A stretch of DNA of 64,000 nt from assembly GCA_016176525.1 (NCBI GenBank), contig JACOWZ010000003.1, positions 128,001 through 192,000 of the forward strand, in the 5' to 3' direction. Of the stretch, positions 2,871 through 61,971 are shown in pieces. This DNA is from Candidatus Colwellbacteria bacterium. GTDB taxonomy: Bacteria > Patescibacteriota > Minisyncoccia > UBA6257 > Colwellbacteraceae. Made by a program: the position numbers and the translations under genes. The notes beneath the pieces are model-generated. The model ran no database searches. It saw only the letters and a list, made by a program, of their open reading frames with translations, and had not been told where the DNA came from. Each line of letters opens with the position of its first letter. Position 1 is the first letter of the stretch.

Positions 2871-4283
2871 TCAAACCCCCCCCTCCGGCGAAAGTTTTCT
2901 GGTGCCAGATTTTTTCTCCATCCAGTTGACCGGCGCAGATATATAAAATGTAGTGCCTTTGTTTTCGACAGACTCAAACCAAATTCTGCCGGTGGTTTGG
3001 TCAAGAACTGATTTTATTATATACAAACCCAAGCCAGTTCCGCCAGAGTCAATAACACGTGCATTGTCCGCTCTAAAAAGTTTTTGAAATATTTTATTTT
3101 TTTGAGCCTCTGGAATGCCTATGCCCGTGTCCGATACCTTTATTAAAAGTTCTTTTTTGCCGCTCAAAGAAATATCAATATTAACTTTACCGCCTTCTGG
3201 AGTGTATTTAACGGCGTTAGATAATAGGTTTTGTAAGATTATGAGCACTAAATCTTTGTCTGCGGTAATCTTAGGAATCTTTGCACCATAATTTTCTATA
3301 AGCTCAATATTTTTCTTCTTCGCATCTATTCTTATTCCACTGCAAACACCTTTTGCAAAATCTTTAATATCTAATTGTTCCGGCTCCACAGTAAAAGAAC
3401 CTACTTCCAACCGCGACACATTTAGAAGTGCGTTTACAAGCTCAATCATGCGCCTGTTGCCTTCATTTACTTCTTCTAGATATTTCTTCTGGCTGATTGT
3501 TATTTTGCCAACGTCGCCGGAGAGAAGCATTTCTGTATACCAGCTTATTGCCGTAAGCGGGGTCCTTAATTGATGCGATGCTATAGCTATAAAATCTGCC
3601 TTTACTTTCTCAAGCTGAAGTTCTTCTGTAATATCTCTAAATACCAAGACAGCTCCTATTATTTTGCCGCTTAGAAATATCGGCGATACGGCCATATATA
3701 CGGGAAACTTATCTCCATTTCTCTTTTTTAAATATAAAGTGGTTTTTACCGAAACTGGGCCAGAAGAAACCATTTTTTTTAAACTAAAGGCCTTGCTGAT
3801 TAGCCTCTCTTTTTTGGGTAATTCTTTACCGTCTGCATTATATATATTTGTTATAGATAGCCAATTTTTGCCAATCATCTCATTATGCATAAAACCCAAC
3901 AATGTTTCAGCTGTCTCATTTACTTCAATCACATTATTATTTTCATCTATTGCAACAACGCCTTCTCCTATACTCGCCAAGATTGATTTTATTCTGGTGT
4001 TAATTGTTTCCAGCTCAACTTTCGTGATGTCTAGATCTTCTAAAATATTTAAAGCTGCAACTTTCGTATCTTCTAAATCTTTGTTTGCGCTAATCAGAGC
4101 TTGATTTCTTTCGTAGACTGCCTGTCTCGCCTCTTTAATTTCTGCCATAGACTTTTCAAAAGTTCTTGCTTCAGCGCCCAACCTCTCTAGCTTTTCTTTT
4201 AGCTTATTTCTACTTCTCCAAAAAAAGGATAAAATCCCCGCAAAAGCGGCTAAATTAAGCAATACAAATAGCAAAATTTGCAT
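2871..4283 (-). CDS. Sensor histidine kinase: N-terminal TM helix, coiled coil, PAS, HisKA, HATPase_c
   Basis: H-box ASHQLRTPL; G1/G2 boxes DTGIGIP and GTGLGL. Confidence 0.85.
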   Translation of the reverse strand: MQILLFVLLNLAAFAGILSFFWRSRNKLKEKLERLGAEARTFEKSMAEIKEARQAVYERNQALISANKDLEDTKVAALNILEDLDITKVELETINTRIKSILASIGEGVVAIDENNNVIEVNETAETLLGFMHNEMIGKNWLSITNIYNADGKELPKKERLISKAFSLKKMVSSGPVSVKTTLYLKKRNGDKFPVYMAVSPIFLSGKIIGAVLVFRDITEELQLEKVKADFIAIASHQLRTPLTAISWYTEMLLSGDVGKITISQKKYLEEVNEGNRRMIELVNALLNVSRLEVGSFTVEPEQLDIKDFAKGVCSGIRIDAKKKNIELIENYGAKIPKITADKDLVLIILQNLLSNAVKYTPEGGKVNIDISLSGKKELLIKVSDTGIGIPEAQKNKIFQKLFRADNARVIDSGGTGLGLYIIKSVLDQTTGRIWFESVENKGTTFYISAPVNWMEKKSGTRKLSPEGGV

Positions 4284-4289
4284 ATTCCT

Positions 4290-4661
4290 CTATTTTGCTT
4301 TTAAAAGCTGTGTTTTTACCTTTTCTATAACTTCTTTCAGCGGGTGGTTAGACTTTACAAAATAGTCCGCTGCACCAAGAGCCATTGATTTTTTAATATC
4401 TTCGTCGGTATCTAAGTTTGAAAGTATTATAACCGGCACCGATTTTAACTCTTCATCGTCTTTTATTTCTTTTAACACTTCGTACCCTCCTTTTTTGGGG
4501 AGTAAAAGATCTAAGAGCACGATATCCGGCTTAAATTCTTTGGCAGCTTTAAACGCAGAGCCTCCTTCGTAGACAACTTTTGTCTGATAACCTTCGTGCT
4601 TAAACTTATCGTCTAAGGCATCGGCTAAAGCCGCCTCATCTTCAACTATAAATATCTTCAT
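4290..4661 (-). CDS. Single-domain response regulator
   Basis: Receiver-domain motifs. C-terminal DYFVKSNHPLKEV is shared with the receiver of 4683-6746. Confidence 0.8.
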   Translation of the reverse strand: MKIFIVEDEAALADALDDKFKHEGYQTKVVYEGGSAFKAAKEFKPDIVLLDLLLPKKGGYEVLKEIKDDEELKSVPVIILSNLDTDEDIKKSMALGAADYFVKSNHPLKEVIEKVKTQLLKAK

Positions 4662-4682: not shown

Positions 4683-6746
4683 CTAAACGTCTGTCTGCCG
4701 CCGTATTTTTTTGATAATATCTTTAGTAATTTGGTCTCTAGCTTTAGTTCGCTCTTCTGTGATTTTTTGCGCTGCCTTTTTACGCTCTGCTTTAAATATC
4801 TTTTCTTTCTCGGCTCTAAGTTTCGCTTGATCGCGCACTTCATCTTCAGCAAGTATTGCCCGCGTTTTTGTGCGTTCTACACGAAGAGCCGCAGACGCCT
4901 TTGCGCGTTCTTTTGCAACCGCAGATGCAACACGGATTTTCGCCGCATGCACTGCCTCATGCGCCCTCTCGCGTACACTCCTTAAAAGTTTTTCTGTTTT
5001 TCGTGCGCGTGCGAGTGCAGCCTTTGCTCTTTCTTTCTCTGCTTTAATTTCGCCTTCGGCCTTGCTCTTTACAGCTTTTAGGCGCGCTTCTTCTAACTTC
5101 TTGTGAGCAGCTATACGCTTTGCTTTTTGATTCTTTAGGCGGGTTAATTCCAGTTTAACTTTTGCGAGCTCTTTTAAGATATCTCTTTCTTTCTTTTTCT
5201 CTTCCATTAAAGCGAATTTGGTTGCTTTATTTACTCCGCTTAGTTTGATTTTTTTCTTTAGCGCAGCAATTTTTGTCTTGGCTCTCTCTTTTTGGCTTGC
5301 AATCAACTTTGACTCTTTCTCTAGCGTTTTAATCGCCTCCCTCGCGCGCTCGCGCGCATCTCTAATCGCGGCTTTTGCTTTATGCCTTGCCTCTGCAATA
5401 CTTTTTTGCTTTTCTTTGGTTTTTTCCGCGAGAAGTTTTTTAACCCTTTCATGCTCTTTTGCAAGCGCAAGTTCCGCCTCTTCTTTCTCTTTCTCTGCCT
5501 GCTCGGCAGCTTTTTTAGCTTCAATAAGCGAAGAGTCGCGCAGGTCGCGCTCAACATGCGTAGATTCGGCAAGTTTTTCTTCTGCAGAAAGCGCTGCCGC
5601 TTCCGCTTTTCTCTTCTCTTCAAATATTGCCTCTTCTGCATCTTTCTTTAGTTTTGCAAGCGTCTCTTCTGCGCGCCTTCTTTCGTCTGCGAGCGCGGTT
5701 TCTGCGCGTTCGCGTTCAATTGCAAGCTTTTCTTCAGCTACCTTTTTCTCAACAAGCGCCGCCTCTGCCATTTGCTTTGCACGCTCTGCCTCCTCTGCTT
5801 TCTTTTTAGCCTCCACTAGGGCCTTGCGAGCTTTTTCTATCTCTGCAGCCGCGGCTTTGGATTTTTTCTTCTCGCGTAAAAGCGCTTCTTGAAGTTTAAC
5901 CTTTTCCCCAAGCACTTCTTCGGTCGAAGTTGCCTTTACCGCTTTCTCCTCTGCGCGCTTTTTCTCAATGGCAATAGAAGCAGTAGTTCTTTTTCTCTCT
6001 TCAACAAGCGCCGCTTCAGCCCGTCTGCGCTCTTCTTTAAGGGCTTCTTCTGCGCGCTTATGCTCTTTTTCAAGCGCTTCTTCTTTGCGCTTAGCTTCTT
6101 CTTCTATTTTTTTGTGTTCTACTTCTCTCTCTGCTTCTGCTCTCTCGCGCTCTTTTGCTGAAGCCTCGGCCGCCCTTGCCCTCTCGGCTTCATGTGCTGC
6201 TTCTCTCTTTCTTCTCTCTTCTGCAAGCGCCTTTGCTGCATGCTTTCGCTCTGCATCAAGTGCTTCGCGAGCTTGGGCCTTTTCTTTTTCGTGCGCAGCT
6301 TCTTCCTCTTTATGGCGTTTTACCTCTAGCGCAGTTTTCGCATCTTCAATATCGGCAGTAGTTGGCAGCTGCACCCCGGCGCGCTCCATTATTTCACTAG
6401 CTTTCTCTACAACTTCTTTCAACGGATGGCTAGCTTTAACAAAATAATCCACAGCGCCCAACCGCAAGGCGCGTTTAATATCTTCATCGTTGCCGAGGTT
6501 TGAGAGCATTATTACATCGGCTTTCTTAAGCTCGTTGTCTCTTTTTAGTTCTTGTAAAACTTCAAAACCGTCTTTTATCGGCAACAGAATATCCAGCAAT
6601 ATAACATCTGGCAAAAAACGCCTTGCAATATCTACAGCCTCGCCGCCATTTTGCGCAATTTCAGCCTCAAAACCACTTGTTATAAATTTATCGCGTAAAG
6701 CTTCGGCGAGCGCAACCTCATCTTCTACAATAAGAACTTTCGCCAT
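4683..6746 (-). CDS. Response-regulator receiver domain fused to a ~550-aa highly charged E/K/R/A-rich helical (coiled-coil or single alpha-helix) region
   Basis: N-terminal 125 aa is a CheY-like receiver (VEDE...LLDILLP). The rest is low-complexity AEEKR repeats. Long + strand S/A/F-rich ORFs are mirror-image artifacts. Confidence 0.75.
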   Translation of the reverse strand: MAKVLIVEDEVALAEALRDKFITSGFEAEIAQNGGEAVDIARRFLPDVILLDILLPIKDGFEVLQELKRDNELKKADVIMLSNLGNDEDIKRALRLGAVDYFVKASHPLKEVVEKASEIMERAGVQLPTTADIEDAKTALEVKRHKEEEAAHEKEKAQAREALDAERKHAAKALAEERRKREAAHEAERARAAEASAKERERAEAEREVEHKKIEEEAKRKEEALEKEHKRAEEALKEERRRAEAALVEERKRTTASIAIEKKRAEEKAVKATSTEEVLGEKVKLQEALLREKKKSKAAAAEIEKARKALVEAKKKAEEAERAKQMAEAALVEKKVAEEKLAIERERAETALADERRRAEETLAKLKKDAEEAIFEEKRKAEAAALSAEEKLAESTHVERDLRDSSLIEAKKAAEQAEKEKEEAELALAKEHERVKKLLAEKTKEKQKSIAEARHKAKAAIRDARERAREAIKTLEKESKLIASQKERAKTKIAALKKKIKLSGVNKATKFALMEEKKKERDILKELAKVKLELTRLKNQKAKRIAAHKKLEEARLKAVKSKAEGEIKAEKERAKAALARARKTEKLLRSVRERAHEAVHAAKIRVASAVAKERAKASAALRVERTKTRAILAEDEVRDQAKLRAEKEKIFKAERKKAAQKITEERTKARDQITKDIIKKIRRQTDV

Positions 6747-6767: not shown

Positions 6768-8504
6768 TTACTTTTCAATTTCACCAATTTGTTCGCCTAT
6801 ATATTTGGCAGAATTTGCCGTGTTTTCTTTAAGGCGCAAAAGCATGGTTTTAATTTCGCGTGCTTCGCGCTCGTCAATCTTTTGGTCGGCATATTTTACC
6901 ATAATAGCGTCAATTTCTTTTTCAACATTCTTAAAGGCATTTACCACATCGCGGCGGGTAATAAACAAATCTCTTGATCTTTTTTCAGAGAGCTTTTTTT
7001 CAAACCAAAAGCCGCCTGCAAATGCCCCAGCAAGGAAAATTATAGCAAGAACAAAAAACCAAGTTTTTGAAATGTCTATGCCAAAGAGAGATAAGAGAGG
7101 CTTGTCTTTAACAGTTATCTTACTTGTTTCTGCAGGCAAGCTCTGCGCACCGCGGGAATCAACTGTGGTTGCAAGTATCACATAATTGCCGCGCCTAATT
7201 GAGGCCTCGCTAAATTCGCCGCTCCAATTTCCGAGCGGGTCAACAGCTACATCTTTTTGCGCCGCTACATCTCCGCGTTCCGAGCGCAGGACAAGGCGCA
7301 CTTTCTCTTCGGCAAGCGCAGTGCCAGCAATGCTAATATTCTGCTCATCTAAAATTACTCTCTCACTAAAAAACGTAATAACAGGAGACTCAATCGGCAA
7401 AATTTCTATATCCAAACTTGCTTCTGTTCTATTGCCTGCGTTATCAACCGCGGCAACAACTATCGTGTGCGCCCCGGGCGGAAGAGGTTTAATTTTATAA
7501 GTTGTTTCGTTGGTGTATTCCACTTCGCCGCCTATCGCACGGATTGCATAGTGTTCTAATCCCGACAAATCGTCGCCAGATTGATAAGTGAGTGTTGGCG
7601 ATGGGTTGTCTGTTACACCATCGACATCTGAACTAATATTGAATTCTACAGGTGGTGCCGTATCTATTGCTATTCTATAGTGTGTTGTGGGGCCCCAGCC
7701 AATATTATTGCGAAAGCGCACATGGAGATACCAAATGCCGTCATCAAGCGGCACAAATTCGCGCGCTTCAAAAAGGCCTTCGGAGGTTACAGGGCTTGAT
7801 GTAGGTATTTTGTTTATCAGCGTATCTACATTTGTTACATCATCTGGTAAGCTCCAAATTGCGGAAAACTTTGATTTTATATTAAACCAGCCCTCGGGGT
7901 CGGGATAAAGCGGCACCTGAACTTCCGGTTTAACAGGCAGATTGCCTGTTGGCACAGCGGGGCGCTCAATTTGCACAGGCGGAGCAACCGGAGAGGGTGT
8001 TACGCCCGGCACAACTTGTGAACCGGCTAAAATATTAACTGTTACACCCTGAAATTCGCGGAGCACATTGGTGCCACTGCCATCCGAGGCAGTTACGGCA
8101 CCATCTAGAAAGGTAATATTGCCTTCTCCGCCGCCCTTAACCCTAAATGTAATATTTAAAACCTGAAGTGACTGGCCGGATTTGCCAGAAGTTGCCCCGC
8201 CAACGAAAGTGACTCTGCCTTCAGTGTTATCAAATGCAGGCTCCTCTAACCAAAAATTAAAAATAGAATCGGTTTTACTCAGACTTGTTACCTCTAAAAT
8301 ACTCGTAGGAAAACTTATTGCAGCTTCGGCAGCGTTCACGCCAATCCCTTCTGAATTTATCTGGACATCAACTGTTATTGTATCCCCAATAGCTGCTGTT
8401 TCTTTGTCAGATGAAAGCTTTAAAATAGCCGCGCTTGCAGTATTTACTCCAAAAAACACTGTAAACGTTGCCGCTACCAAAACTAGTCTTAAAAATTTAT
8501 TCAT
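6768..8504 (-). CDS. Cell-surface protein: signal peptide, cohesin-like domain, Ig/FN-like beta domains, C-terminal TM anchor and charged cytoplasmic tail
   Basis: N-terminal MNKFLRLVLVAATFTVFFGVNTASA. Cohesin-like segment (ITVDVQIN...ISFPTSILEV...ITFRVKG). TM helix WFFVLAIIFLAGAFAGGFWF near the C-terminus. Confidence 0.6.
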   Translation of the reverse strand: MNKFLRLVLVAATFTVFFGVNTASAAILKLSSDKETAAIGDTITVDVQINSEGIGVNAAEAAISFPTSILEVTSLSKTDSIFNFWLEEPAFDNTEGRVTFVGGATSGKSGQSLQVLNITFRVKGGGEGNITFLDGAVTASDGSGTNVLREFQGVTVNILAGSQVVPGVTPSPVAPPVQIERPAVPTGNLPVKPEVQVPLYPDPEGWFNIKSKFSAIWSLPDDVTNVDTLINKIPTSSPVTSEGLFEAREFVPLDDGIWYLHVRFRNNIGWGPTTHYRIAIDTAPPVEFNISSDVDGVTDNPSPTLTYQSGDDLSGLEHYAIRAIGGEVEYTNETTYKIKPLPPGAHTIVVAAVDNAGNRTEASLDIEILPIESPVITFFSERVILDEQNISIAGTALAEEKVRLVLRSERGDVAAQKDVAVDPLGNWSGEFSEASIRRGNYVILATTVDSRGAQSLPAETSKITVKDKPLLSLFGIDISKTWFFVLAIIFLAGAFAGGFWFEKKLSEKRSRDLFITRRDVVNAFKNVEKEIDAIMVKYADQKIDEREAREIKTMLLRLKENTANSAKYIGEQIGEIEK

Positions 8505-8523
8505 AATTCTAATATTAAGTATA

Positions 8524-11370
8524 TCATCTTCTTAATCCTCGTATAAATATGGAAAAGTCCGAAATGTCGGTTTTGCCGTCTTGGTTGAGATCTAGCGTAC
8601 CGCGCAAAGAGGTGTCGGTTGATGCCCAACGGAACAAAAATATGCTCCAATCGCTGATATTGGCTTTGCCGTCGCCGTTTAAGTCGGTTGCCGGCACTAG
8701 TAAAGTGGAGATAATAAAACTCTTAACAATGGATTTAGGCGATCTGGGTCCGAGATTTCTGTCTTGTTGCCAAACGCTTATAGCGTGGGTGCCAACGCCC
8801 AGATCTGCAGTATTCACCAGCAGTTTATACGAGCCAGTATCCGGATATTCCGGATCTACACCACCCTCCACGCCGTCAATTTCGTATTTAATGCTTGAAG
8901 TTACAAATTTAGAGCCGCTAACCGCCAAGAAATCTCCCTTGCGCACAGTAGCCCGCGAGAGCAATATTGTTGGAGGTAAAAATATGTTTTCTACCGATGT
9001 TAAACCTCTTTGAATGTTTACTTCATAAAAAGTGGACTGTGCAGATGCCCCAAACTTGTCTGTGGCCCTAATTGCGTAATAAAAAACATCCGGCTGGGTG
9101 CTCGTAAATTCAATATAGAAAAAGCCCGAAGTTTGCACCGGAATATTGCTATCAACTTCGTAAGTCGGAGCAAAAGTACTTCCGCCGCGAGCAAGCAACG
9201 ATAGCGAGGCGTCTGGATATGCTTTGCCATGAAAATAAAGTCTGCCGATAGGAGTCGCCCCGCCTGGCGGAGGTGGTGGCGGAGGCGGAGGCGGTGGTGG
9301 CGGAGGTGGCGGTCCTGGAGGCGGAGGTGGAGGTGGCGGAGAGGTATTAGTAGTTCCGCTCGGCACATTTGAAATAGCGGAAACATTCGGCACTTCATCT
9401 GAAGTTTTAAGCGCAAAAAAGTATGTAGTGCTCTCGGAAAGCCCTGTAACAGTCATAGACTCGGAACTGCCAGCTACAGATGGCGTAGGCTCGCCGCTTA
9501 CAGCAGTTGCGGAAGAAAAATTGCCGTCAGTTATGGTAGAGGTTGAATACCTTATATCATAACTTGTGGCAGTCCCCGTACTTCCATCGTCCCCCGGCGC
9601 AGTCCAGTCGAGATCAAGTGTAGATGACGACGGGTTTGAAGCCGCTAGATCGCTTACTGCCGCAGGCGCGGTTGTGTCGGCAGATGCGGAAGTGGTGCCA
9701 CTTGGAATATTGGAAATAGCAGAAGTATTTGGCACTTCGTCAGATGTTTTGAGCGCAAAGAAGTATGTGGTACTCGCAGAGAGCCCCGTCACTGTTTTTG
9801 ATTCTGACGAACCAGCGACAGAAGGAGTAGGTTCTCCAGAAACTTGTGTAGCAGAAGAAAAATTGCCGTCGGTTATAGTTGAAGTAGAATAACGCAAATC
9901 ATAAGTAGTGGCAGTTCCCGTGTTTCCGTCGTCCCCTGGAGCCGTCCATGTAACTACAATAGACGAAGACGTAACCGAGCCGGTGGCTAAATCACTTACT
10001 GCTGCCGGCGCGGTAGTGTCCCCCGCTGCAGCAGGTGTAAATGGGCTTCCAGTCGGTACAACGCCGGTAGCGGAATAGTTCACATCATCGTCGCGGGTGT
10101 AGATGCGGTAATGGTACGCGGTGCCGTTTGTAAGGCCTGTATCCGTGCACGATGTAGACGATGTCACGCAGGCAACAGTTGAGGAACCGATGGTATTGCC
10201 GACTACATATGTTGTCCCCTCGGTTGGAGTATCGGAGGTGGCGGCGCCGGCTCTGCGCAAGATAATCGTGCTTGTATAGTCGGAATCGGCCGGGTTAGTC
10301 CAAGAAAGAGAAACCTGCGCGTCACCTGCCGTGCCAGTTGCGCCCGTGACATTTGCCGGCGACTCGTTGTCGATTGTGACTGTGGCGGAGTTGGTGTCGG
10401 TTCCTGCTTGTGTGTTGGTGCTTGTGAAAGCGGTAATTGTGCCGGTCACAGAATAAGTTGAGCCAGAAGGCGCGGGCATGTCGGCGTGTGATTTTGGAGT
10501 GATACGAATTTTGAATGAGGTGAGAGTTGTTGTGACAGGAATCCCGCAGCTTGTAAGCGAGACGGTGCTTGAGGCTGGGTCGACCTGCGAACAATACGTA
10601 GTAGAACCAGCGTTATTTGTTATCTCAACAAGCGAGAGACCGCCGGAAACGCCTGATGCTAAGGTTGCAGTCGCCGCTGTAACTGTGTCTGTGCCGGTTG
10701 AAGTTTGGAGAGTAAATGTATCAAGTTCGGTGGCAGAAGCGCCTGGGGCGATAGAGGAATTTGAGGGATTCGTGCCGTTGCCGATGGTCGTTGTCGCCGC
10801 GGGAGGAGTATATGTAACTGTTATCCATAAGTAATCAAAATGAATGGCGTCGGCTGCTCCGCCGTCGTTCGAGGTAAACTCAATATCAATATTTTGTATT
10901 TCGCTCAAGGTATCAACACCAGCCGAGAAAAGATTGTAGCTCTGCTCCGCGCTAAAACCAGTGATGTCGGTTGGAGTAATTGTTGTGTTTGTTAGCCCTC
11001 CGCCGTTGTCATAACGCACAGAATTTGTGCCGTTATACCCATCTTCAGCGCCGAACTGCAAACGGAGAGACACAGCAGTAATAGTAGAGCCAACTGGAAT
11101 CGACGAAACATCAAAAGTTATAAACTGCATAACAGCGCCTTTATCTACAGTGTAAACCCCATCGCTTGCAACAACCGCAGAAAGTGTGTCTGGGTCTACA
11201 GATGAATTATCGGTTGTAATTTCACTAAGCGCTTCGCCTGTGTTGTCGTTGGCATGCTTTGCATTAGGCACAGCGTTTAGCGTGTCTGCCAAAACCAGAG
11301 ATGTGCCATCAAAAAACCCAAACAAAACAACAATAGCAATAATAAATATAAAAAACTTAATTAACTTCAC
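8524..11370 (-). CDS. Large secreted protein: signal peptide, beta-rich domains, two tandem FN3-like repeats, poly-proline linker, C-terminal type-I dockerin
   Basis: Dockerin Ca-binding repeats DLNGDGKANISD and DLNQDGKTDISD. PPPPPPPPGPPPPP... tract. Two 114-aa near-identical repeats. Confidence 0.7.
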   Translation of the reverse strand: MKLIKFFIFIIAIVVLFGFFDGTSLVLADTLNAVPNAKHANDNTGEALSEITTDNSSVDPDTLSAVVASDGVYTVDKGAVMQFITFDVSSIPVGSTITAVSLRLQFGAEDGYNGTNSVRYDNGGGLTNTTITPTDITGFSAEQSYNLFSAGVDTLSEIQNIDIEFTSNDGGAADAIHFDYLWITVTYTPPAATTTIGNGTNPSNSSIAPGASATELDTFTLQTSTGTDTVTAATATLASGVSGGLSLVEITNNAGSTTYCSQVDPASSTVSLTSCGIPVTTTLTSFKIRITPKSHADMPAPSGSTYSVTGTITAFTSTNTQAGTDTNSATVTIDNESPANVTGATGTAGDAQVSLSWTNPADSDYTSTIILRRAGAATSDTPTEGTTYVVGNTIGSSTVACVTSSTSCTDTGLTNGTAYHYRIYTRDDDVNYSATGVVPTGSPFTPAAAGDTTAPAAVSDLATGSVTSSSIVVTWTAPGDDGNTGTATTYDLRYSTSTITDGNFSSATQVSGEPTPSVAGSSESKTVTGLSASTTYFFALKTSDEVPNTSAISNIPSGTTSASADTTAPAAVSDLAASNPSSSTLDLDWTAPGDDGSTGTATSYDIRYSTSTITDGNFSSATAVSGEPTPSVAGSSESMTVTGLSESTTYFFALKTSDEVPNVSAISNVPSGTTNTSPPPPPPPPGPPPPPPPPPPPPPPPPGGATPIGRLYFHGKAYPDASLSLLARGGSTFAPTYEVDSNIPVQTSGFFYIEFTSTQPDVFYYAIRATDKFGASAQSTFYEVNIQRGLTSVENIFLPPTILLSRATVRKGDFLAVSGSKFVTSSIKYEIDGVEGGVDPEYPDTGSYKLLVNTADLGVGTHAISVWQQDRNLGPRSPKSIVKSFIISTLLVPATDLNGDGKANISDWSIFLFRWASTDTSLRGTLDLNQDGKTDISDFSIFIRGLRR
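9266..9340. repeat. (GGN)n tract encoding the poly-Pro linker on the minus strand
   Basis: ggcggaggtggtggcggaggcggagg... seen in sequence. Confidence 0.8.
9345..10030. repeat. Tandem direct repeat, ~342 bp x 2 (FN3-like modules of the dockerin protein)
   Basis: cacttcatctgaagtttt at 9391 and cacttcgtcagatgtttt at 9733. Long near-identical blocks by eye. Confidence 0.7.
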
Positions 11371-11400: not shown

Positions 11401-11922
11401 TTACTTTAAGCTCTTTATCTTTTTTTTCAGCTCAACCATCTTGAGCTCTCTGCCAACCATAAATTTATTCATTCTCTCAATCTCTTTTGTGTGACGCTCG
11501 GCTTCTTTCTGACTTTCCACCTCTTTTGTTATGTCTCTAAAAATCTCTATAGAGCCAATTGGCTTATTATCTAAAATAATCGGCGAGGCGGTTATAAAGA
11601 CCGGGAAAACACTGCCGTCTTTTCTAACATAGTTTGATGTGCCGCTTACAGACTCCCCCGTTTGCAAAGATTTAGTAACCAATCTATCTGTAGCCGGCAC
11701 CGGTCTGCCGTCATTATCTATATCTTTAACCACATCCGGAAACCACTTGCCTAAAAGGTCGCTTTCTTCGCATCCAAGGAAACTAAGGGCGGGTTTATTT
11801 ACTTTATTAATTTTCCCGCTCTCGTCTATTGCAATAAAGCCGTCGCCAATACTTTCTATTGTCGCCTCAAGACGCAAACGCTCTTCTGTAATTTTCGCGT
11901 TCTCATCTGTATTTTTAACCAT
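11401..11922 (-). CDS. PAS-domain sensor protein with C-terminal helix ending in MNKFMVGRELKMVELKKKI motif
   Basis: PAS signature (GDGFIAIDESGKI...N.A...LG). No output enzyme domain. Confidence 0.7.
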   Translation of the reverse strand: MVKNTDENAKITEERLRLEATIESIGDGFIAIDESGKINKVNKPALSFLGCEESDLLGKWFPDVVKDIDNDGRPVPATDRLVTKSLQTGESVSGTSNYVRKDGSVFPVFITASPIILDNKPIGSIEIFRDITKEVESQKEAERHTKEIERMNKFMVGRELKMVELKKKIKSLK

Positions 11923-11928
11923 TTTTTA

Positions 11929-12171
11929 TCAACGAGTAAGGCTTATAAGTCTGGAGGTGAATTTATTTACTACCTCTGGGTCATTAGTAAGCAAAGCAAC
12001 CGAAACTTTCATCCAATCTATAAGTTTTAATAAATCTTCTGTTGTCATCTCCGACGGAGCTTTATGCAAATGGGTTCTAATTTGCCTGTCTATAAACCTG
12101 CCAGAGGCAGGGCCCAAGAAGTCATCGGCAACTTTTACAACTTCATCATATAACATAACTGTTGAAACCAT
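11929..12171 (-). CDS. Hypothetical small protein (80 aa), probably co-transcribed with the PAS protein
   Basis: 6-nt spacing to the downstream gene. No recognizable motif. Confidence 0.4.
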   Translation of the reverse strand: MVSTVMLYDEVVKVADDFLGPASGRFIDRQIRTHLHKAPSEMTTEDLLKLIDWMKVSVALLTNDPEVVNKFTSRLISLTR

Positions 12172-12179
12172 GATTTGTA

Positions 12180-13133
12180 TTATACTGACTCAATTTTTGT
12201 TAGCTTTCTAACGCCAATTGCAAGTGATATGTATGCGACTGCAATAATAAATATTAAAATGTAAATAAGGGCCAGAATCTGCCATAAGCCAAGTTGCAAA
12301 ATAGCTGCTGAACCTATCGACCTTAATCCTTCCAAGAAAATCGACAAAAATACAAGAAAAACTATTCCTAAAGAGATCCAATTAAACATACTTTTGTAAA
12401 TTATTCCTGTAGCTTCTTTAACATACCTGGAGAAACCTTGAATTGAAGCAATACCCAAAAACCACGCAATAAAAGTTGGCACAATAAGAGTTAGTGTCGC
12501 CGCAGCTGGACCTATATAATATGTCGGCCTAATATCTCCAACTTGTTGAAAAGAAGCTTCGTGCGAGAAAATTAAAGTAAGAAAAATATAACCCAGAAGA
12601 CTAATGAATACTGATGCAGCAATGATAAATTTCTTGGTAAACTTCAACGTTTTACCATGCAGGTTAAAAAAACGCATCGATGAACGCAGAAAATAACTAA
12701 ACCCTATAAGATAAGGTATAACAAAGAAATATTGGCTTAAAGTTGAGGTAATTGGTCTCCAAGAAAAATCAGAAGCACCTTGGGCAAAATAAGAACTTGT
12801 TGTTGAAATAATAGAAGATAATATTCCCAACCAAACAATAAAACCAACACCTTTTAGCATATCGCGGAATGCTGGTTCTTCTTTGGTGTCACGTATTAAA
12901 TTTACATAACGCTTTAAAGCTGAAAAAGCGAAAACCCCAGCGAACCAGATAATAAACATTGGTATTGCGAGGGTAACTCTTATTATAAATAACCCTTGTT
13001 CGGAAATATTGTACAAAGCCGCGGATTGCGGGTTTACAGGTGTGTTAAGTATAAGTGTTGAATAGACCAGTATCCAGAGAACAAGTATCGTGTAATATAT
13101 ATTCCACCCCTTAGTTTTTGCGGGCATAGCCAT
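12180..13133 (-). CDS. Hypothetical polytopic membrane protein (~8 TM)
   Basis: Hydrophobic segments throughout. Confidence 0.5.
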   Translation of the reverse strand: MAMPAKTKGWNIYYTILVLWILVYSTLILNTPVNPQSAALYNISEQGLFIIRVTLAIPMFIIWFAGVFAFSALKRYVNLIRDTKEEPAFRDMLKGVGFIVWLGILSSIISTTSSYFAQGASDFSWRPITSTLSQYFFVIPYLIGFSYFLRSSMRFFNLHGKTLKFTKKFIIAASVFISLLGYIFLTLIFSHEASFQQVGDIRPTYYIGPAAATLTLIVPTFIAWFLGIASIQGFSRYVKEATGIIYKSMFNWISLGIVFLVFLSIFLEGLRSIGSAAILQLGLWQILALIYILIFIIAVAYISLAIGVRKLTKIESV

Positions 13134-17927: not shown

Positions 17928-18527
17928 TTATAGACTAGATTGTTTATCTGCGATTCTCTTTTTAAGATCCGCTATTCTCAACTCCCTGGTGATCATATTT
18001 TTATTGAACTCCTTCAACTTGCTATTTTTCATAGAAATTTCCTTATAAACAGTCTCTAAAGATAAGGTTTCTGTGACTAATTCTTTTTCTATTTTCTTAA
18101 CGCCATCAACTTGCCTAGAAAGCTCTTTGTTTATTTCTCTGAGTTTTGTAGGACTAATTAGTTTTAACATAGAAGGAACGGCAACCGCATATGCGACAAA
18201 TGATGCAAAAGATATAAGACCCGTGCCGAGATCAATCGTACCGGCGAGATAATACGCCGGATAAAAAAATACTAAGGCGTTAATAAAATGGCTGGTGCTG
18301 CACCAAACCCCAAAGACGGTAATAACCAAAAAGACCCATCTAAAAGAGAAATCCTTCCTTTTGATATAGATATAAAAAAGCTCGGCTGGAATAACAAGAT
18401 AAGTGATGCCGATTAAAATATTGGCAATTATAAGCGTCCACATCAGCCCGATATTATTTGGAATAAAATGCGCACTGTGAGGCTCGAACCCGCCGGAGTT
18501 TAATATTAGATTAATAAAATCAAGCAT
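17928..18527 (-). CDS. Ethylene-binding-domain (ETR1 N-terminal)-like membrane sensor with C-terminal coiled coil; no kinase domain
   Basis: IPAELFYIYIKRK...FRWVFLVITVFGVWCSTSHFINAL aligns with ETR1 IPLELIYFVKK...[23 protein letters not shown]. C-x3-H copper ligands conserved. Confidence 0.65.
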   Translation of the reverse strand: MLDFINLILNSGGFEPHSAHFIPNNIGLMWTLIIANILIGITYLVIPAELFYIYIKRKDFSFRWVFLVITVFGVWCSTSHFINALVFFYPAYYLAGTIDLGTGLISFASFVAYAVAVPSMLKLISPTKLREINKELSRQVDGVKKIEKELVTETLSLETVYKEISMKNSKLKEFNKNMITRELRIADLKKRIADKQSSL

Positions 18528-19116
18528 GTTTGTTGTCTATATCAACCAATTGGGCTTCTAATTCTTTGACGGCGCTATCGCGATTCGCCATGATTCTATT
18601 AAAATTTTCCAATTCCTCGTTTTTCAATATCAAATTCTCGCTGGCTTTTTTGAGCTCTTCTTTCTTTACCGCAAGTTCTCCTAATTTAGACTCTCGACTT
18701 TTAATTTCATCAGAGAGAGATTTGTTGGCTTGCTGCATTTGTTCCGGGCTTACCAAACTAACAATGATAGGCAAGAAGTAAAGCATAGCTACCGCGGTCG
18801 CGGCCGAAACCAAAAAAGTTACGACGCTGATTATCGCCTGCAGATAATATGCCGGATACCAGAAGATAAGAACATGCATTAAATGGGTAAGGCCGCATAA
18901 GAAGATAAAAGCCCCGAAAAGCAAAACCATCCAGTTCAGATACAAATCCCTTCTTTTTCTAACGAAATATATGATTACAACCGGGATTAAGAGATAAGCC
19001 AAGAAACTGAAGGCATTCCCATACACCGACAGATCCATTGCAATCGGAGTATCAAAAAAGTGTGCTCTATGAGGTTCAAAAACAGAACCATCAAAAATTA
19101 ATTTAAGAAAGTCCAT
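18520..19116 (-). CDS. Ethylene-binding-domain-like membrane sensor, paralog 2. Start moved to the Met matching the paralog's N-terminus; the track's start at 19173 is GTG.
   Basis: IPVVIIYFVRKRR...NWMVLLFGAFIFLCGLTHLMHVL; Cys/His spacing as in ETR1. Extended -10 TGgTATAAT upstream. Confidence 0.65.
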   Translation of the reverse strand: MDFLKLIFDGSVFEPHRAHFFDTPIAMDLSVYGNAFSFLAYLLIPVVIIYFVRKRRDLYLNWMVLLFGAFIFLCGLTHLMHVLIFWYPAYYLQAIISVVTFLVSAATAVAMLYFLPIIVSLVSPEQMQQANKSLSDEIKSRESKLGELAVKKEELKKASENLILKNEELENFNRIMANRDSAVKELEAQLVDIDNKHA

Positions 19117-19278
19117 AGTAGAATACACAAAAAAATTATACCACGCGCTATTTAATAACAATCTAAAAAACACAACAGAAATCCGGTTTTGAATAATTTC
19201 CTATTCACCCCGACGCTACGTCGGGGCAAGCGGGAAACTCCCGTTTCCCGATCCCTTCCCAGTTCGATTCCCTATAAA

Positions 19279-58984: not shown

Positions 58985-60532
58985 CTAACGTTCTTCACTC
59001 TGGTAATCTTGGTACTGTTGATCCTGGTATTGTTGGTCTTGATATTGCTGATCATATTCCTCTTGATGCTGTTCATCGTAATACTGCTGAGACTGCTCCT
59101 CGTATTGCCTTTGATATTCTTCGCGCTTCGGGAAAACACACTGGCCTTCCTGCCAATATCCCCCTTGTTCAGCGCAGACTCTGGCAGCTTCGTCCTCGCG
59201 CCCTCCGCGCTCTTCACTATTGCCATAACCTCCACAGTCTTGTGGGTTTGCCTCACAATAAGCACGACATTCTTCCTGAGTACTACACCCGCCAGGCCCA
59301 GAAGATTCAAAACCTCCACCCTCTCGCTGAGCTCCGCTTTCATTTGAGCCAGGGCCAAAACCACGGCATTCTTCTGGGTTTTCCTTACAATAAGCCATAC
59401 ATTCCTCTTCGGTTTGGCAACCTCCAGGTCCAGAAAAACCGCCCTCGTGATCTCCAAACCCCTCTGGACCGGGCTGGAAACTTTGGAAACACGCCTCCAT
59501 TTTTTCACCCAATTGCGGAGTTGGGAAACCCTCGCCATTCAACAGCCGGTTAAACTCCGCCTCACCTATACTTTGTTTCAAGCACTCTATAACTTCGGGC
59601 GGAGCTTGCTCCAAACCGCGAGAAAATTCTTGTAAGCCCTCTTTCATACGAGCCTTATCTTCGTCGGATATAAAGCCAGCTTCTTCTGCAAAACGGAAAC
59701 ACTCTTCTACATTATTCTCGTCGTTGCAATACGCCTCGCACTGCTCTTTAGTTCTACAGCCACCCGGCATCTTGCCTTCTTTCATAAAAGTAAGCATCTT
59801 GCGAGCTTGCGATGCCTCCTCCTCATTCATAAGTCCCATCTTTAAACCAAACTCCATACATTCCTCTATGTTTTCGCCCTCAAAACAATACGCTTCACAT
59901 TCTCTTTGCGTACGACATCCACCAGGGGTTTCGCCGTTTCTCATAAGCTCCATAGCGCGCTTTGCGGTTTCCAGTTCGCCCTTATCCATAAAGCCGGCTT
60001 CTTCGGCAAAGGCCAAACATTCTTCCATATTGTCCGGGTTCATGCAGTATTCTTCGCAAGCTTCTTTGTTTGTGCAGCCTGCTGGAATTTGCACACCGCG
60101 CTTGATAGCCGACCGGATTTTTTTAGCTTCGTCTAAATCTTCATTGTCAATAAACCCGTGACGTTCTGCAAACTCTATGCACTCATCTAAGTTTTGGACA
60201 TTATTGCAGTAAGCCTCACAAGAAACATGACTTGTGCAACCTCCAGGACCACCCTCTTTCATCGCACTAGCAAACTTATCTAGGTCTTCTTCTTTTTGCT
60301 CTGCAATAGGCCCTTCAACTAAATTGTGCTTTTTAGCAAAAGCAAAACATGCGCGGAAATTATCCGGATTGTCGCAATACGAGCGGCACTCCTCCTCGCT
60401 TGTGCAACCACCAAGTTCTTCAACTGGGAATACAATATCATCTTTGGAGGCGGCATCTGCAATAGACACGAGAGATGCAACAAAGAGCGGTAAAAAAGCT
60501 AGCGCTAAAACAAGTGTAATGCGTTTATTCAT
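58985..60532 (-). CDS. Secreted Cys-rich repeat protein: signal peptide, seven ~40-aa 4-Cys repeats (GGC.S.EEC.AYC..P.N.EEC..FA...GF), Q/Y-rich acidic tail
   Basis: Repeats read directly from the translation. Opposite-strand ORFs are artifacts of the repeats. Confidence 0.65.
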   Translation of the reverse strand: MNKRITLVLALAFLPLFVASLVSIADAASKDDIVFPVEELGGCTSEEECRSYCDNPDNFRACFAFAKKHNLVEGPIAEQKEEDLDKFASAMKEGGPGGCTSHVSCEAYCNNVQNLDECIEFAERHGFIDNEDLDEAKKIRSAIKRGVQIPAGCTNKEACEEYCMNPDNMEECLAFAEEAGFMDKGELETAKRAMELMRNGETPGGCRTQRECEAYCFEGENIEECMEFGLKMGLMNEEEASQARKMLTFMKEGKMPGGCRTKEQCEAYCNDENNVEECFRFAEEAGFISDEDKARMKEGLQEFSRGLEQAPPEVIECLKQSIGEAEFNRLLNGEGFPTPQLGEKMEACFQSFQPGPEGFGDHEGGFSGPGGCQTEEECMAYCKENPEECRGFGPGSNESGAQREGGGFESSGPGGCSTQEECRAYCEANPQDCGGYGNSEERGGREDEAARVCAEQGGYWQEGQCVFPKREEYQRQYEEQSQQYYDEQHQEEYDQQYQDQQYQDQQYQDYQSEER

Positions 60533-60813: not shown

Positions 60814-60885
60814 GCGGGTATCGTATAGTGGCTATTATACCTCGTTGCCAACGAGGAGATGGCGGTTCGATTCCGCTTACCCGCT
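60814..60885 (+). tRNA. tRNA-Gly (anticodon GCC)
   Basis: Hand fold: anticodon stem CCTCG/CGAGG, loop TTGCCAA. Confidence 0.7.
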
Positions 60886-61971
60886 CTGTTTGTTTTTGAG
60901 TTTTTCTAACTCTTCTTTTAGCTTTATCATCTTTAGTTCTCTTCCTATCATTAGTTTGTTCATTGTTTCTAACTCATTGATTTTTTCTTGTAGTTCCTGT
61001 GTTCGCTCTTTTACTTGTTTTTCTAATTGTATTTTTAAAGAAGCCAATATCTCTTTTTTTTCTCTTTCAGTCTGCTCCGCTTCTTTTAAAACTGCTTTTT
61101 CTCTTTCGCGCCGTTTAACCTCTTCGGTGCGATCGTTTACAAAAAATGCAATTCCAATTTGCCTGTTATGGCCGTTTTGCACCGGCGAGAGTGCAGTAGA
61201 AATTATTAAATCTTCTCCTTTACGGTTTTTGGTTTTAACCTCCAAAGCGGTAGTTGATTTGTTTTTTATGGCTTCTTTAAAAAGACCGAGTAATTTATCT
61301 TTAAACTCGCCAACCGCTTTATCAAAAATTAATTTTCCAGAAACATCAACTTCGCTCAAGCCAAAAAGTTTTTGCGCACTCACGTTCCACTGAGTAATTC
61401 TTCCATCCAAATCTGTGATAAATATAGCCTCTCCGGCGTTGTCTAAAACATTTTTAAAATAACGCGATGAGAGCAAAAGACGGCGATATTCGGGTACGTC
61501 AAGCGGCGGGTCTGTACGTATTTGTTCGCGCACCGCGCCGATTGTAGTGCGCATTCTTCTTTTCTGTTTTATGCCTTGAATAAGCTCTAAAACTCGGTTT
61601 TTAAAATCGAAAATGGAATTTATATCTATAACAAGCCAAGAATCGCCTACTCGCGCGGCATATTTAAAATCTCGCTCCATATCTTCTTTTCTTTTTTTAT
61701 TTTCTGTTAAAAATATATAAACCATATCTGGTTCAAGCGAATAAAAATAACGTGCCAATTCAAGTGAAGCAGCCAAATCTTGCTCAAAAATAACTATGAG
61801 GGGGTGCCTCCGCTCATCAAAAAGTTGCTTAAATATTTCTTTAGCTTTATCCCTCTTTGCTATTACACAATCTAAGCTTTCTACAAATAAATCTTTAAAA
61901 AGAATGCGTTCTTTATCCGAAATTTTTCCGGATTCGTTTACATATAAATAACAATCACTTTTAGTCTGCAT
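60877..61971 (-). CDS. Signalling protein: degenerate receiver-like N-domain, PAS domain, ERT-containing coiled coil, C-terminal MNKLMIGRELKMIKLKEEL motif
   Basis: PAS core (AIFITDLDGRITQWN). S-helix-like KERTQEL. No enzymatic output. Confidence 0.6.
   Translation of the reverse strand: MQTKSDCYLYVNESGKISDKERILFKDLFVESLDCVIAKRDKAKEIFKQLFDERRHPLIVIFEQDLAASLELARYFYSLEPDMVYIFLTENKKRKEDMERDFKYAARVGDSWLVIDINSIFDFKNRVLELIQGIKQKRRMRTTIGAVREQIRTDPPLDVPEYRRLLLSSRYFKNVLDNAGEAIFITDLDGRITQWNVSAQKLFGLSEVDVSGKLIFDKAVGEFKDKLLGLFKEAIKNKSTTALEVKTKNRKGEDLIISTALSPVQNGHNRQIGIAFFVNDRTEEVKRREREKAVLKEAEQTEREKKEILASLKIQLEKQVKERTQELQEKINELETMNKLMIGRELKMIKLKEELEKLKNKQSG

Follow-up and report, generated by a model that had tools for sequence, protein, structure and literature searches.

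A conserved C-terminal motif of output-less sensor proteins and its putative docking site in histidine kinases

This study was concerned with a 64,000-nucleotide stretch of DNA from Candidatus Colwellbacteria bacterium (assembly GCA_016176525.1, contig JACOWZ010000003.1, positions 128,001 to 192,000; called the window, with coordinates counted from its first nucleotide), and in particular with a helical motif at the C-termini of four sensor proteins encoded there. The motif, which we call the B-tail, ends the proteins of a family of sensors that is very large, occurs in Bacteria and Archaea and appears not to have been described before. In many loci their genes lie directly upstream of genes for histidine kinases that carry a second motif, which we call the A-box. 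These facts of family and gene neighbourhood are held with high confidence. A first-pass annotation of the window had suggested that the motif may be a common docking or dimerisation element for sensors without output domains. Both the tail family and its ordered operon coupling to A-box kinases strongly support this suggestion, and from them we infer a contact between tail and kinase.

Four window sensors and the family of their C-terminal motif

The four genes and their tails are listed below. E values are those of a profile hidden Markov model (HMM) of the B motif, which was built from 149 motif segments, all taken from other genomes or metagenomes.

11401–11922 (−): gene for a PAS and B-tail sensor of 173 residues with no output domain (open reading frame, ORF; PAS_9/PAS match and nothing else)
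11404–11487 (−): B-tail of this PAS protein, KEIERMNKFMVGRELKMVELKKKIKSLK (E = 5e-17; motif end 7 residues from the stop)
60877–61971 (−): gene for a 364-residue protein with a predicted (beta-alpha)5 N-terminal domain, PAS and a long helix with B-tail (ORF; Pfam, PAS only)
60880–60978 (−): B-tail of the 364-residue protein, NELETMNKLMIGRELKMIKLKEELEKLKNKQSG (E = 2.1e-14)
17928–18527 (−): gene for ETR1_N (ethylene-binding domain), coil and B-tail, 199 residues (PF25487, 72.7 bits)
17931–18020 (−): B-tail variant of the 199-residue protein, KLKEFNKNMITRELRIADLKKRIADKQSSL (E = 1e-7)
18520–19116 (−): gene for an ETR1_N paralog with a degenerate B-tail (PF25487, 93.1 bits; 8-nucleotide overlap with the next gene)
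18523–18615 (−): weak B-tail of the paralog, ELENFNRIMANRDSAVKELEAQLVDIDNKHA (E = 2.9e-4; next window ORF, 1.3)

All four were verified as reverse-strand ORFs with stops 7–12 residues past the motif (7, 12, 10 and 11 residues, respectively, after its 10-residue core). Before the stop, the C-termini read ...ERMNKFMVGRELKMVELKKKIKSLK (11401–11922), ...ETMNKLMIGRELKMIKLKEELEKLKNKQSG (60877–61971), ...EFNKNMITRELRIADLKKRIADKQSSL (17928–18527) and ...NFNRIMANRDSAVKELEAQLVDIDNKHA (18520–19116). The segment 11401–11470 comprises the stop codon and final 22 codons of the first protein, and the mechanical ORF of the last extends to a GTG at 19173. The domain content was largely as first described. The products of 11401–11922 and 60877–61971 match the PAS families PF13426/PF00989, and the ERT/ERHT segment reported upstream of the motif is present in both. 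The other two score well above the PF25487 cut-off of 27 and retain the C-x3-H pair of transmembrane (TM) helix 2, the predicted Cys/His copper ligands, as WCSTSH (17928–18527) and LCGLTH (18520–19116); they are read as ETR1-like ethylene-binding domains. No kinase, cyclase or DNA-binding family was matched in any of the four proteins with Pfam and NCBIfam, even at E ≤ 1, which agrees with their description as sensors that lack outputs. The label of pseudo-receiver given to residues 1–165 of the 60877–61971 protein held only in part: a (beta-alpha)5 pattern was seen in a low-confidence AlphaFold2 (AF2) model, and Pfam gave no Response_reg match. This model was run without an alignment and has a low overall predicted local distance difference test score (pLDDT) of 55.7; its residues 281–362 form a single helix with pLDDT 80–90.

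Within the window, a six-frame regular-expression search confined the motif to these four ORFs. The external HMM, run against 669 window ORFs, likewise placed the same four at the top, at E values from 5e-17 to 2.9e-4 as listed, with the next ORF at 1.3. The fourth copy, already noted as the weaker one, is thus degenerate but, as far as its score can tell, real at the scale of the window. The long, charged coil protein encoded at 4683–6746 received no score from this HMM. Thus, the B motif is not a generic heptad or coiled-coil sequence. A homologue search with the 199-residue ethylene-binding protein returned only itself (an identical Candidatus Colwellbacteria hypothetical protein), and an exact-sequence lookup of the 173-residue PAS protein returned no record.

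The motif was sought beyond the window, as the first-pass annotation had proposed, and a pan-prokaryotic family of output-less sensors was found. The consensus of the B-tail is E-L-E-(R/K)-(F/L/M)-N-K-L-(M/T)-V-G-R-E-L-K-M-(I/V)-E-L-K-K-E-I-x-x-L, in short ELExFNKLMVGRELKMxELKKEI, and it makes up the conserved final ~30 residues of a long C-terminal helix, with the invariant Arg at a core position of the heptad. The near-invariant polar residues (G-R-E and K) are conserved from DPANN archaea to Proteobacteria. An hmmsearch with the tail profile against 1.84 billion cluster representatives identified 16,676 clusters at E ≤ 1e-3, of which 2,408 reach E ≤ 1e-10, so the motif is clearly more than a heptad coil peculiar to four proteins. 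When each species was represented by a single genome, at least 510 B-tail loci were confirmed, and the taxa represented include Patescibacteria, Proteobacteria, Bacteroidota, Nitrospirota, Planctomycetota, Actinobacteria, DPANN archaea, Methanosarcinales and Thermoplasmatales.

The motif is terminal in nearly every sample. Among the best 150 matches (36–962 residues), a median of 17 residues follows the motif before the C-terminus, and in 98.7% no more than 40 do; the same limit of 40 residues holds for 96% of the 160 occurrences in fetched loci, and the motif is terminal in ~100 ORFs of 97–1487 residues from species genomes. A word-indexed protein search with the tail profile returned only short fragments, every one of which ends 8–30 residues past NKxMVGRELKM(V/I)ELKKxI. 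Upstream of the tail, Pfam analysis of 118 B-tail proteins identified PAS (79), HAMP (25), dCache_1 (16) and CHASE4 (6), together with seven-transmembrane (7TM), GAF, REC (receiver), MASE1, 4HB_MCP and PocR domains; HisKA, HATPase_c and GGDEF are absent from the 25 families listed for this set. In these sequences, the B-tail is a family-defining C-terminal module carried by sensor-only proteins alone. Profile searches gave no significant Pfam or NCBIfam model or PDB sequence that covers it. A tblastn search of plasmids with the tail consensus gave no match, for which low-complexity masking is a possible cause.

A minority of B-tail proteins (loci L006, L017, L045, L081, L092 and L113) have an extra helical domain of ~85 residues beyond the tail, with the pattern ..EA..LE..V...L...Y......LL..L..DS..HE..F.ELI.YE. 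In addition, in four large proteins (P0018, P0163, P0043 and P0085) an internal B motif and, after it, ..LG.P..Y come before TM-CHASE-TM or PocR, and a second B motif lies at the C-terminus. In such proteins the motif can, by its position, also close an internal sensor module.

One reading of the motif was not supported. The tail could have been a mimic of the H-box, with G-R in place of the S-H of the DHp helix. HisKA (PF00512) matches none of the four tails at E ≤ 1, and hhalign of the B motif against the H-box aligned only a 16-column lead-in (ELExF) with a probability of 5%, the register being off by one residue (GRELKM against SHDLR).

The A-box and the order of the genes

The A-box has the consensus (Q/T)(K/R)A-h-L-N-(I/L)-L-E-D-(V/F)-x-E-E-(K/R), in short QKAxLN[IL]LED; in the kinase it occupies the coiled coil that immediately precedes PAS or DHp. 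A PDB profile search with the A-box returned nothing significant, and no description of the B/A motif pair was found in the open-access literature, Pfam 2025, NCBIfam 2026 or PDB 2026; the only related accounts in that literature were of kinases split into DHp and CA and of PcrP/PcrS. Two kinase architectures carry it. The first, typical of the candidate phyla radiation (CPR), is TM-HAMP-A-PAS-HisKA-HATPase_c. The second is a cytoplasmic kinase in which 2–6 tandem 21-residue A-box repeats lead directly into HisKA-HATPase_c with no sensor domain, and the gene upstream of such kinases encodes 2–4 PAS domains and a B-tail. In the kinases of loci L038, L040, L057, L063, L068, L072 and L077, the repeat has an exact 21-residue period, NILEDFxxEKxxLxxxQRAxL; how many repeats a kinase has does not correspond to how many B genes lie upstream. 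The A-box also occurs in A-PAS-B proteins that have no kinase at all. Its presence in unrelated architectures (TM-HAMP-A-PAS-kinase, A-repeat kinase and A-PAS-B) indicates that the A-box tracks the B motif and not a subfamily of kinase cores.

Gene order was analyzed from both sides. The B-seeded loci came from species genomes, and the A-seeded loci from a metagenome scan with the pattern [KVR]A[VIA]LN[IV]LED, which represents CPR-type sequences. Partners were scored by HMM, and a locus was counted as having room where at least 1.5 kb was available on the flank concerned.

B-tail seeds, 80 species genomes: 40 of 69 loci with room have an A-box gene downstream (same strand); 0 of 69 have one upstream; opposite strand, 0
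A-box seeds, 80 metagenome loci: 47 of 50 loci with room have a B-tail gene upstream (same strand); 0 of 66 have one downstream; opposite strand, 0

In other words, for 94% of the A-box kinases a B gene lies upstream, and the order is fixed. In about half of the genomic loci, the A-box is encoded by the very next gene after the B-tail gene, on its strand. Most adjacent pairs are spaced by −16 to +8 nucleotides, an overlap or tiny gap as expected for co-translated partners. In these scored loci, the B motif was not found on the A protein, nor the A motif on the B protein. Where the two genes are not adjacent, the gene between them encodes a periplasmic substrate-binding protein (NMT1/THI5, Peripla_BP_6 or ABC_sub_bind) or a small hemerythrin. 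For example, substrate-binding genes, SBP_bac_5 among them, lie between B and A-box genes in L012, L027, L047, L049, L014, L035 and L010, which suggests three-input systems, and a hemerythrin-like gene for ~140 residues lies in this position in L048 (7438–7860), L053 (7491–7910) and L062 (1250–1678), operons related to those of the B-tail proteins with the extra ~85-residue domain.

Elsewhere the motifs are chained on one polypeptide. Proteins of the form dCache-HAMP-B-PocR-A-PAS-B carry both, and a 98-residue protein, P0189 (L161, 424–720), consists of an A-box and a B-tail only; its start lies 11 nucleotides inside the end of a PAS-B gene. The AF2 model of P0189 is one straight, continuous helix through A and B with pLDDT > 90, and not a hairpin. 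This protein may be an adaptor or relay element.

The window itself contains a kinase with an A-box, flanked by two response regulators:

2871–4283 (−): histidine kinase comprising a TM helix at the N-terminus, a coil that holds the A-box, PAS, HisKA and HATPase_c (Pfam)
4008–4070 (−): A-box, DTKVAALNILEDLDITKVELE, ~12 residues before the kinase PAS (sole six-frame match of the regular expression)
4290–4661 (−): single-domain response regulator that adjoins the kinase on its upstream side; candidate phospho-acceptor (Response_reg, 76.8 bits)
2484–2858 (−): single-domain response regulator that adjoins the kinase on its downstream side; candidate phospho-acceptor (Response_reg, 77.3 bits)

When all window ORFs were searched by phmmer with the core of this kinase, 2871–4283 proved to be the sole kinase core in the window. 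An external HMM of the A-box matched this kinase alone (E = 7.9e-9; next ORF, 2.4), in which AALNILED occupies residues 78–85 and PAS begins at residue 97. The A-box aligns with those of CPR-type kinases without gaps over 28 residues, the ER(N/T) lead-in included. All four B-tail genes are located upstream of the kinase gene on the same (−) strand. The PAS domain of the 11401–11922 product and that of the kinase are 35% identical (E 2e-25), a likeness that points to a window-specific link between these two proteins. As a general principle of coupling, PAS–PAS paralogy was rejected: it is true of the window pair, but when the sensor regions of B proteins were compared with kinases, the cognate kinase ranked first in only 3 of 64 cases.

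The first-pass annotation had named this lone kinase as an example of a partner, a choice that fits its possession of the only A-box and the only kinase core in the window. It is the best available candidate partner there, and we infer that all four window sensors act on this one kinase; ~580 kb of the same contig lie outside the window and may hold other A-box kinases.

Evidence on contact between B-tail and A-box

That the B-tail docks its sensor in trans onto an A-box kinase is considered fairly probable, for several reasons beyond gene order. First, the A-repeat kinases that have no sensor domain offer only A repeats and a kinase core for a sensor to bind. Secondly, cognate sensors and kinases share no other specific similarity, as the 3 of 64 first ranks indicate. 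Third, there is a hint of compensating charges. In 7 pairs, the K of GRELKM at heptad position g is replaced by E, and in all seven (7/7) the second E of EDVEEEK, an E/D position of the A-box, is K/R/T/S. Among the remaining pairs, 50 of 74 are acidic at that A-box position (Fisher p = 7.6e-4, with no correction for phylogeny), and this pair of columns ranks second by corrected mutual information among pairs with a single A-box. Lastly, the most conserved residues of the two motifs are polar and of opposite character (G-R-E-L-K...K-K in B; N..E-D..E-E in A), which is more typical of a specificity interface than of a plain zipper. The B-tail and the A-box each start ~17–20 residues past an E-R-T-like S-helix signature. 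This equal distance would fit two parallel signalling helices in register, although such a geometry is speculation.

The mechanism would be as follows. The B-tail would replace the transmitter (DHp-CA) module and act as the output of sensor-only proteins, docking the sensor in trans on the complementary acidic A-box, which would be the input site of the kinase. The two motifs would probably form a hetero-oligomeric helical bundle, through which a conformational change in the sensor could pass to the kinase stalk. In the window, two PAS and two ethylene-binding sensors would feed the A-box kinase 2871–4283, which would then phosphorylate the flanking single-domain response regulators. A wider proposal is offered tentatively, as a possibility: the B-tail and the A-box may form a universal, modular plug-and-socket code in Bacteria and Archaea that couples free-standing sensors to kinases in trans, with chaining and with several sensors per kinase. 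Its sensors would be PAS, Cache, CHASE, GAF, 7TM and, in this window, ethylene-binding domains, and chaining would proceed through A-PAS-B proteins and A-B mini-adaptors.

Several observations weigh against docking. The evidence on binding is indirect, and structure prediction was of monomers only. Among the B-seeded loci, 42% have no A-box gene within 6 kb. The stoichiometry does not match, with up to 6 A repeats for one B gene, or 2–3 B genes for one A-box. The covariation comes from 7 pairs, which perhaps represent only 2–3 independent events. A chimeric B-A query, in a search biased to short proteins, found no close fusion of B and A on one chain and no protein spanning both halves; its sole find was the A...B mini-protein. 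In the window, the A-box (EDLDITK) is without the acidic run typical of CPR-type kinases, and no B gene adjoins the kinase gene, the distances being 7.1, ~13.6, ~14.2 and 56.6 kb. Four genes separate the PAS-B gene at 11401 from the kinase; they encode an FN3/dockerin surface protein, a cohesin/Big_13 protein, a REC domain with a charged coil, and a single-domain REC.

The B-tail could instead be a homo-oligomerisation cap, that is, a dimer or tetramer coil, with the sensor reaching the kinase by other surfaces (PAS–PAS, DHp or CA) or by a shared ligand or binding protein, and with the A-box playing an unrelated role in the kinase stalk. The tail is indeed a long heptad helix (residues 281–362 at pLDDT 80–90 in the window model, and part of the continuous helix of P0189), the periplasmic binding proteins or hemerythrins that the operons often encode are a possible real link, and 42% of B loci have no A-box nearby. 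However, a plain oligomer coil has no need of near-invariant G-R-E and K residues from DPANN archaea to Proteobacteria. Nor does a cap agree with the upstream B gene of 94% of A-box kinases in fixed order, the exposure of just A repeats and a kinase core by sensor-less kinases, the charge swaps between B and A, or the absence of specific likeness between cognate sensor domains. This explanation is regarded as unlikely.

Less likely still is that the tail binds another conserved partner, for example the DHp/CA core of the kinase or the response regulator, as an anti-kinase or scaffold, and that the A-box is a co-inherited feature of one kinase subfamily. In consensus lines, the lead-in to the B motif (..NxELExF..) resembles the junction into the H-box helix of neighbouring kinases, and single-domain response regulators flank the window kinase. 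The resemblance does not extend beyond the lead-in, as noted above for the hhalign and HisKA comparisons, and the A-box occurs both in unrelated kinase architectures and in A-PAS-B proteins without a kinase. Finally, the four proteins might be pseudogene remnants of full-length kinases, or alike by chance as generic coils. The 11401–11922 protein does resemble a kinase PAS module minus its DHp-CA part, but the same ending in 16,676 clusters, its steady place 8–30 residues ahead of the stop, the specific HMM E values with the charged window coil unscored, and intact ORFs in tight operons make this extremely improbable.

Related systems and other genes of the window

The proposed docking of B-tail sensors on A-box kinases looks like a new, modular system for coupling sensors to kinases, akin to the accessory sensors of two-component systems. 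The S-helix, attributed to Anantharaman, Balaji & Aravind in 2006, is reportedly a heptad helix that joins a sensor to an output domain in one chain. The B-tail sensors resemble it in having a long helix of heptad pattern that extends from PAS or HAMP and bears an E-R-T-like signature. However, the helix of the window proteins ends in a distinct and far more conserved motif, followed by the stop, and the output is presumed to be on another polypeptide.

Short LOV and PAS proteins (PpSB1-LOV, SBW25-LOV and RsLOV) also consist of a PAS domain and a C-terminal helix (J-alpha) with no effector, and short LOV proteins were among the top Foldseek matches to the model of the 60877–61971 protein. The likeness is architectural only: the flavin-cysteine motif (GxNCRFLQ) is absent from both window PAS proteins, and a PDB profile search found no B motif in J-alpha.

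In accessory-sensor ("three-component") systems, among them CetB/CetA of Campylobacter, sensing falls to a separate protein that lacks a transmitter and acts together with a neighbouring kinase or transducer. In Azospira, the PAS-only membrane protein PcrP is a separate, transmitter-less sensor for the PcrS kinase, and both are genetically essential (PMC3884062). No shared docking motif is known to have been described in those systems, whereas the B/A pair recurs in thousands of systems in both Bacteria and Archaea. Split histidine kinases also distribute kinase function over two polypeptides that need to associate, with DHp and CA on separate proteins (PMC3591291), as with Hik36-Hik43 (PMC7656254). 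Their cut is inside the catalytic core; in the B/A system it separates the input module from a kinase whose DHp-CA is intact, with conserved helical motifs on each side of the split.

The two ETR1_N proteins resemble ETR1 in their PF25487 matches above cut-off and in the C-x3-H of the second TM helix. Plant and cyanobacterial receptors, however, fuse this domain to GAF or phytochrome modules and a kinase, and the window proteins have only a coil and a B-tail. The tandem genes at 17928–19116, which lack a GAF or kinase module, may encode an "ethylene receptor" in split form, here in a CPR bacterium. No other protein with an ethylene-binding domain and a B-tail was found among the ~280 B-tail proteins sampled.

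Many free-standing PAS, Cache and GAF proteins have no output, and for most of them there is no explanation. A docking tail with a kinase socket, if true, would give tens of thousands of orphan sensors a function and a predictable partner. The wiring diagrams of two-component systems would be revised, as an input need not share the chain of its kinase, and a natural, portable interface would be available for engineering sensor-kinase combinations. For Candidatus Colwellbacteria, the findings suggest that signals of ethylene/copper type and of PAS type are funnelled into one kinase; the convergence of several sensors would, if true, account for how CPR bacteria, with their reduced genomes, combine four different inputs on one kinase. 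The prediction of B/A docking is directly testable.

Several other reverse-strand genes of the window were noted. The gene at 4683–6746, between the PAS-B gene and the kinase, encodes a receiver domain fused to ~570 residues rich in E, K, R and A without a Pfam match; this charged part is a probable single long helix or coiled coil. Inside the same signalling cluster, 6768–11370 encodes a cohesin/Big_13 protein and a 948-residue FN3 protein that has a dockerin at its C-terminus and a stretch of ~30 prolines; the two resemble a cohesin-dockerin surface pair, here in a CPR genome. Immediately ahead of the PAS-B gene, 11929–13133 encodes a 317-residue multi-pass membrane protein and an 80-residue protein, 6–8 nucleotides apart and without Pfam matches, which may be operon partners of the PAS-B sensor. 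Lastly, the gene at 58985–60532 encodes a 515-residue secreted protein without a Pfam match, in which repeated cysteine-rich units of ~45 residues (GGC..EEC..YC....N.EEC..FA...GF) are followed by a tail rich in Q, E and Y.

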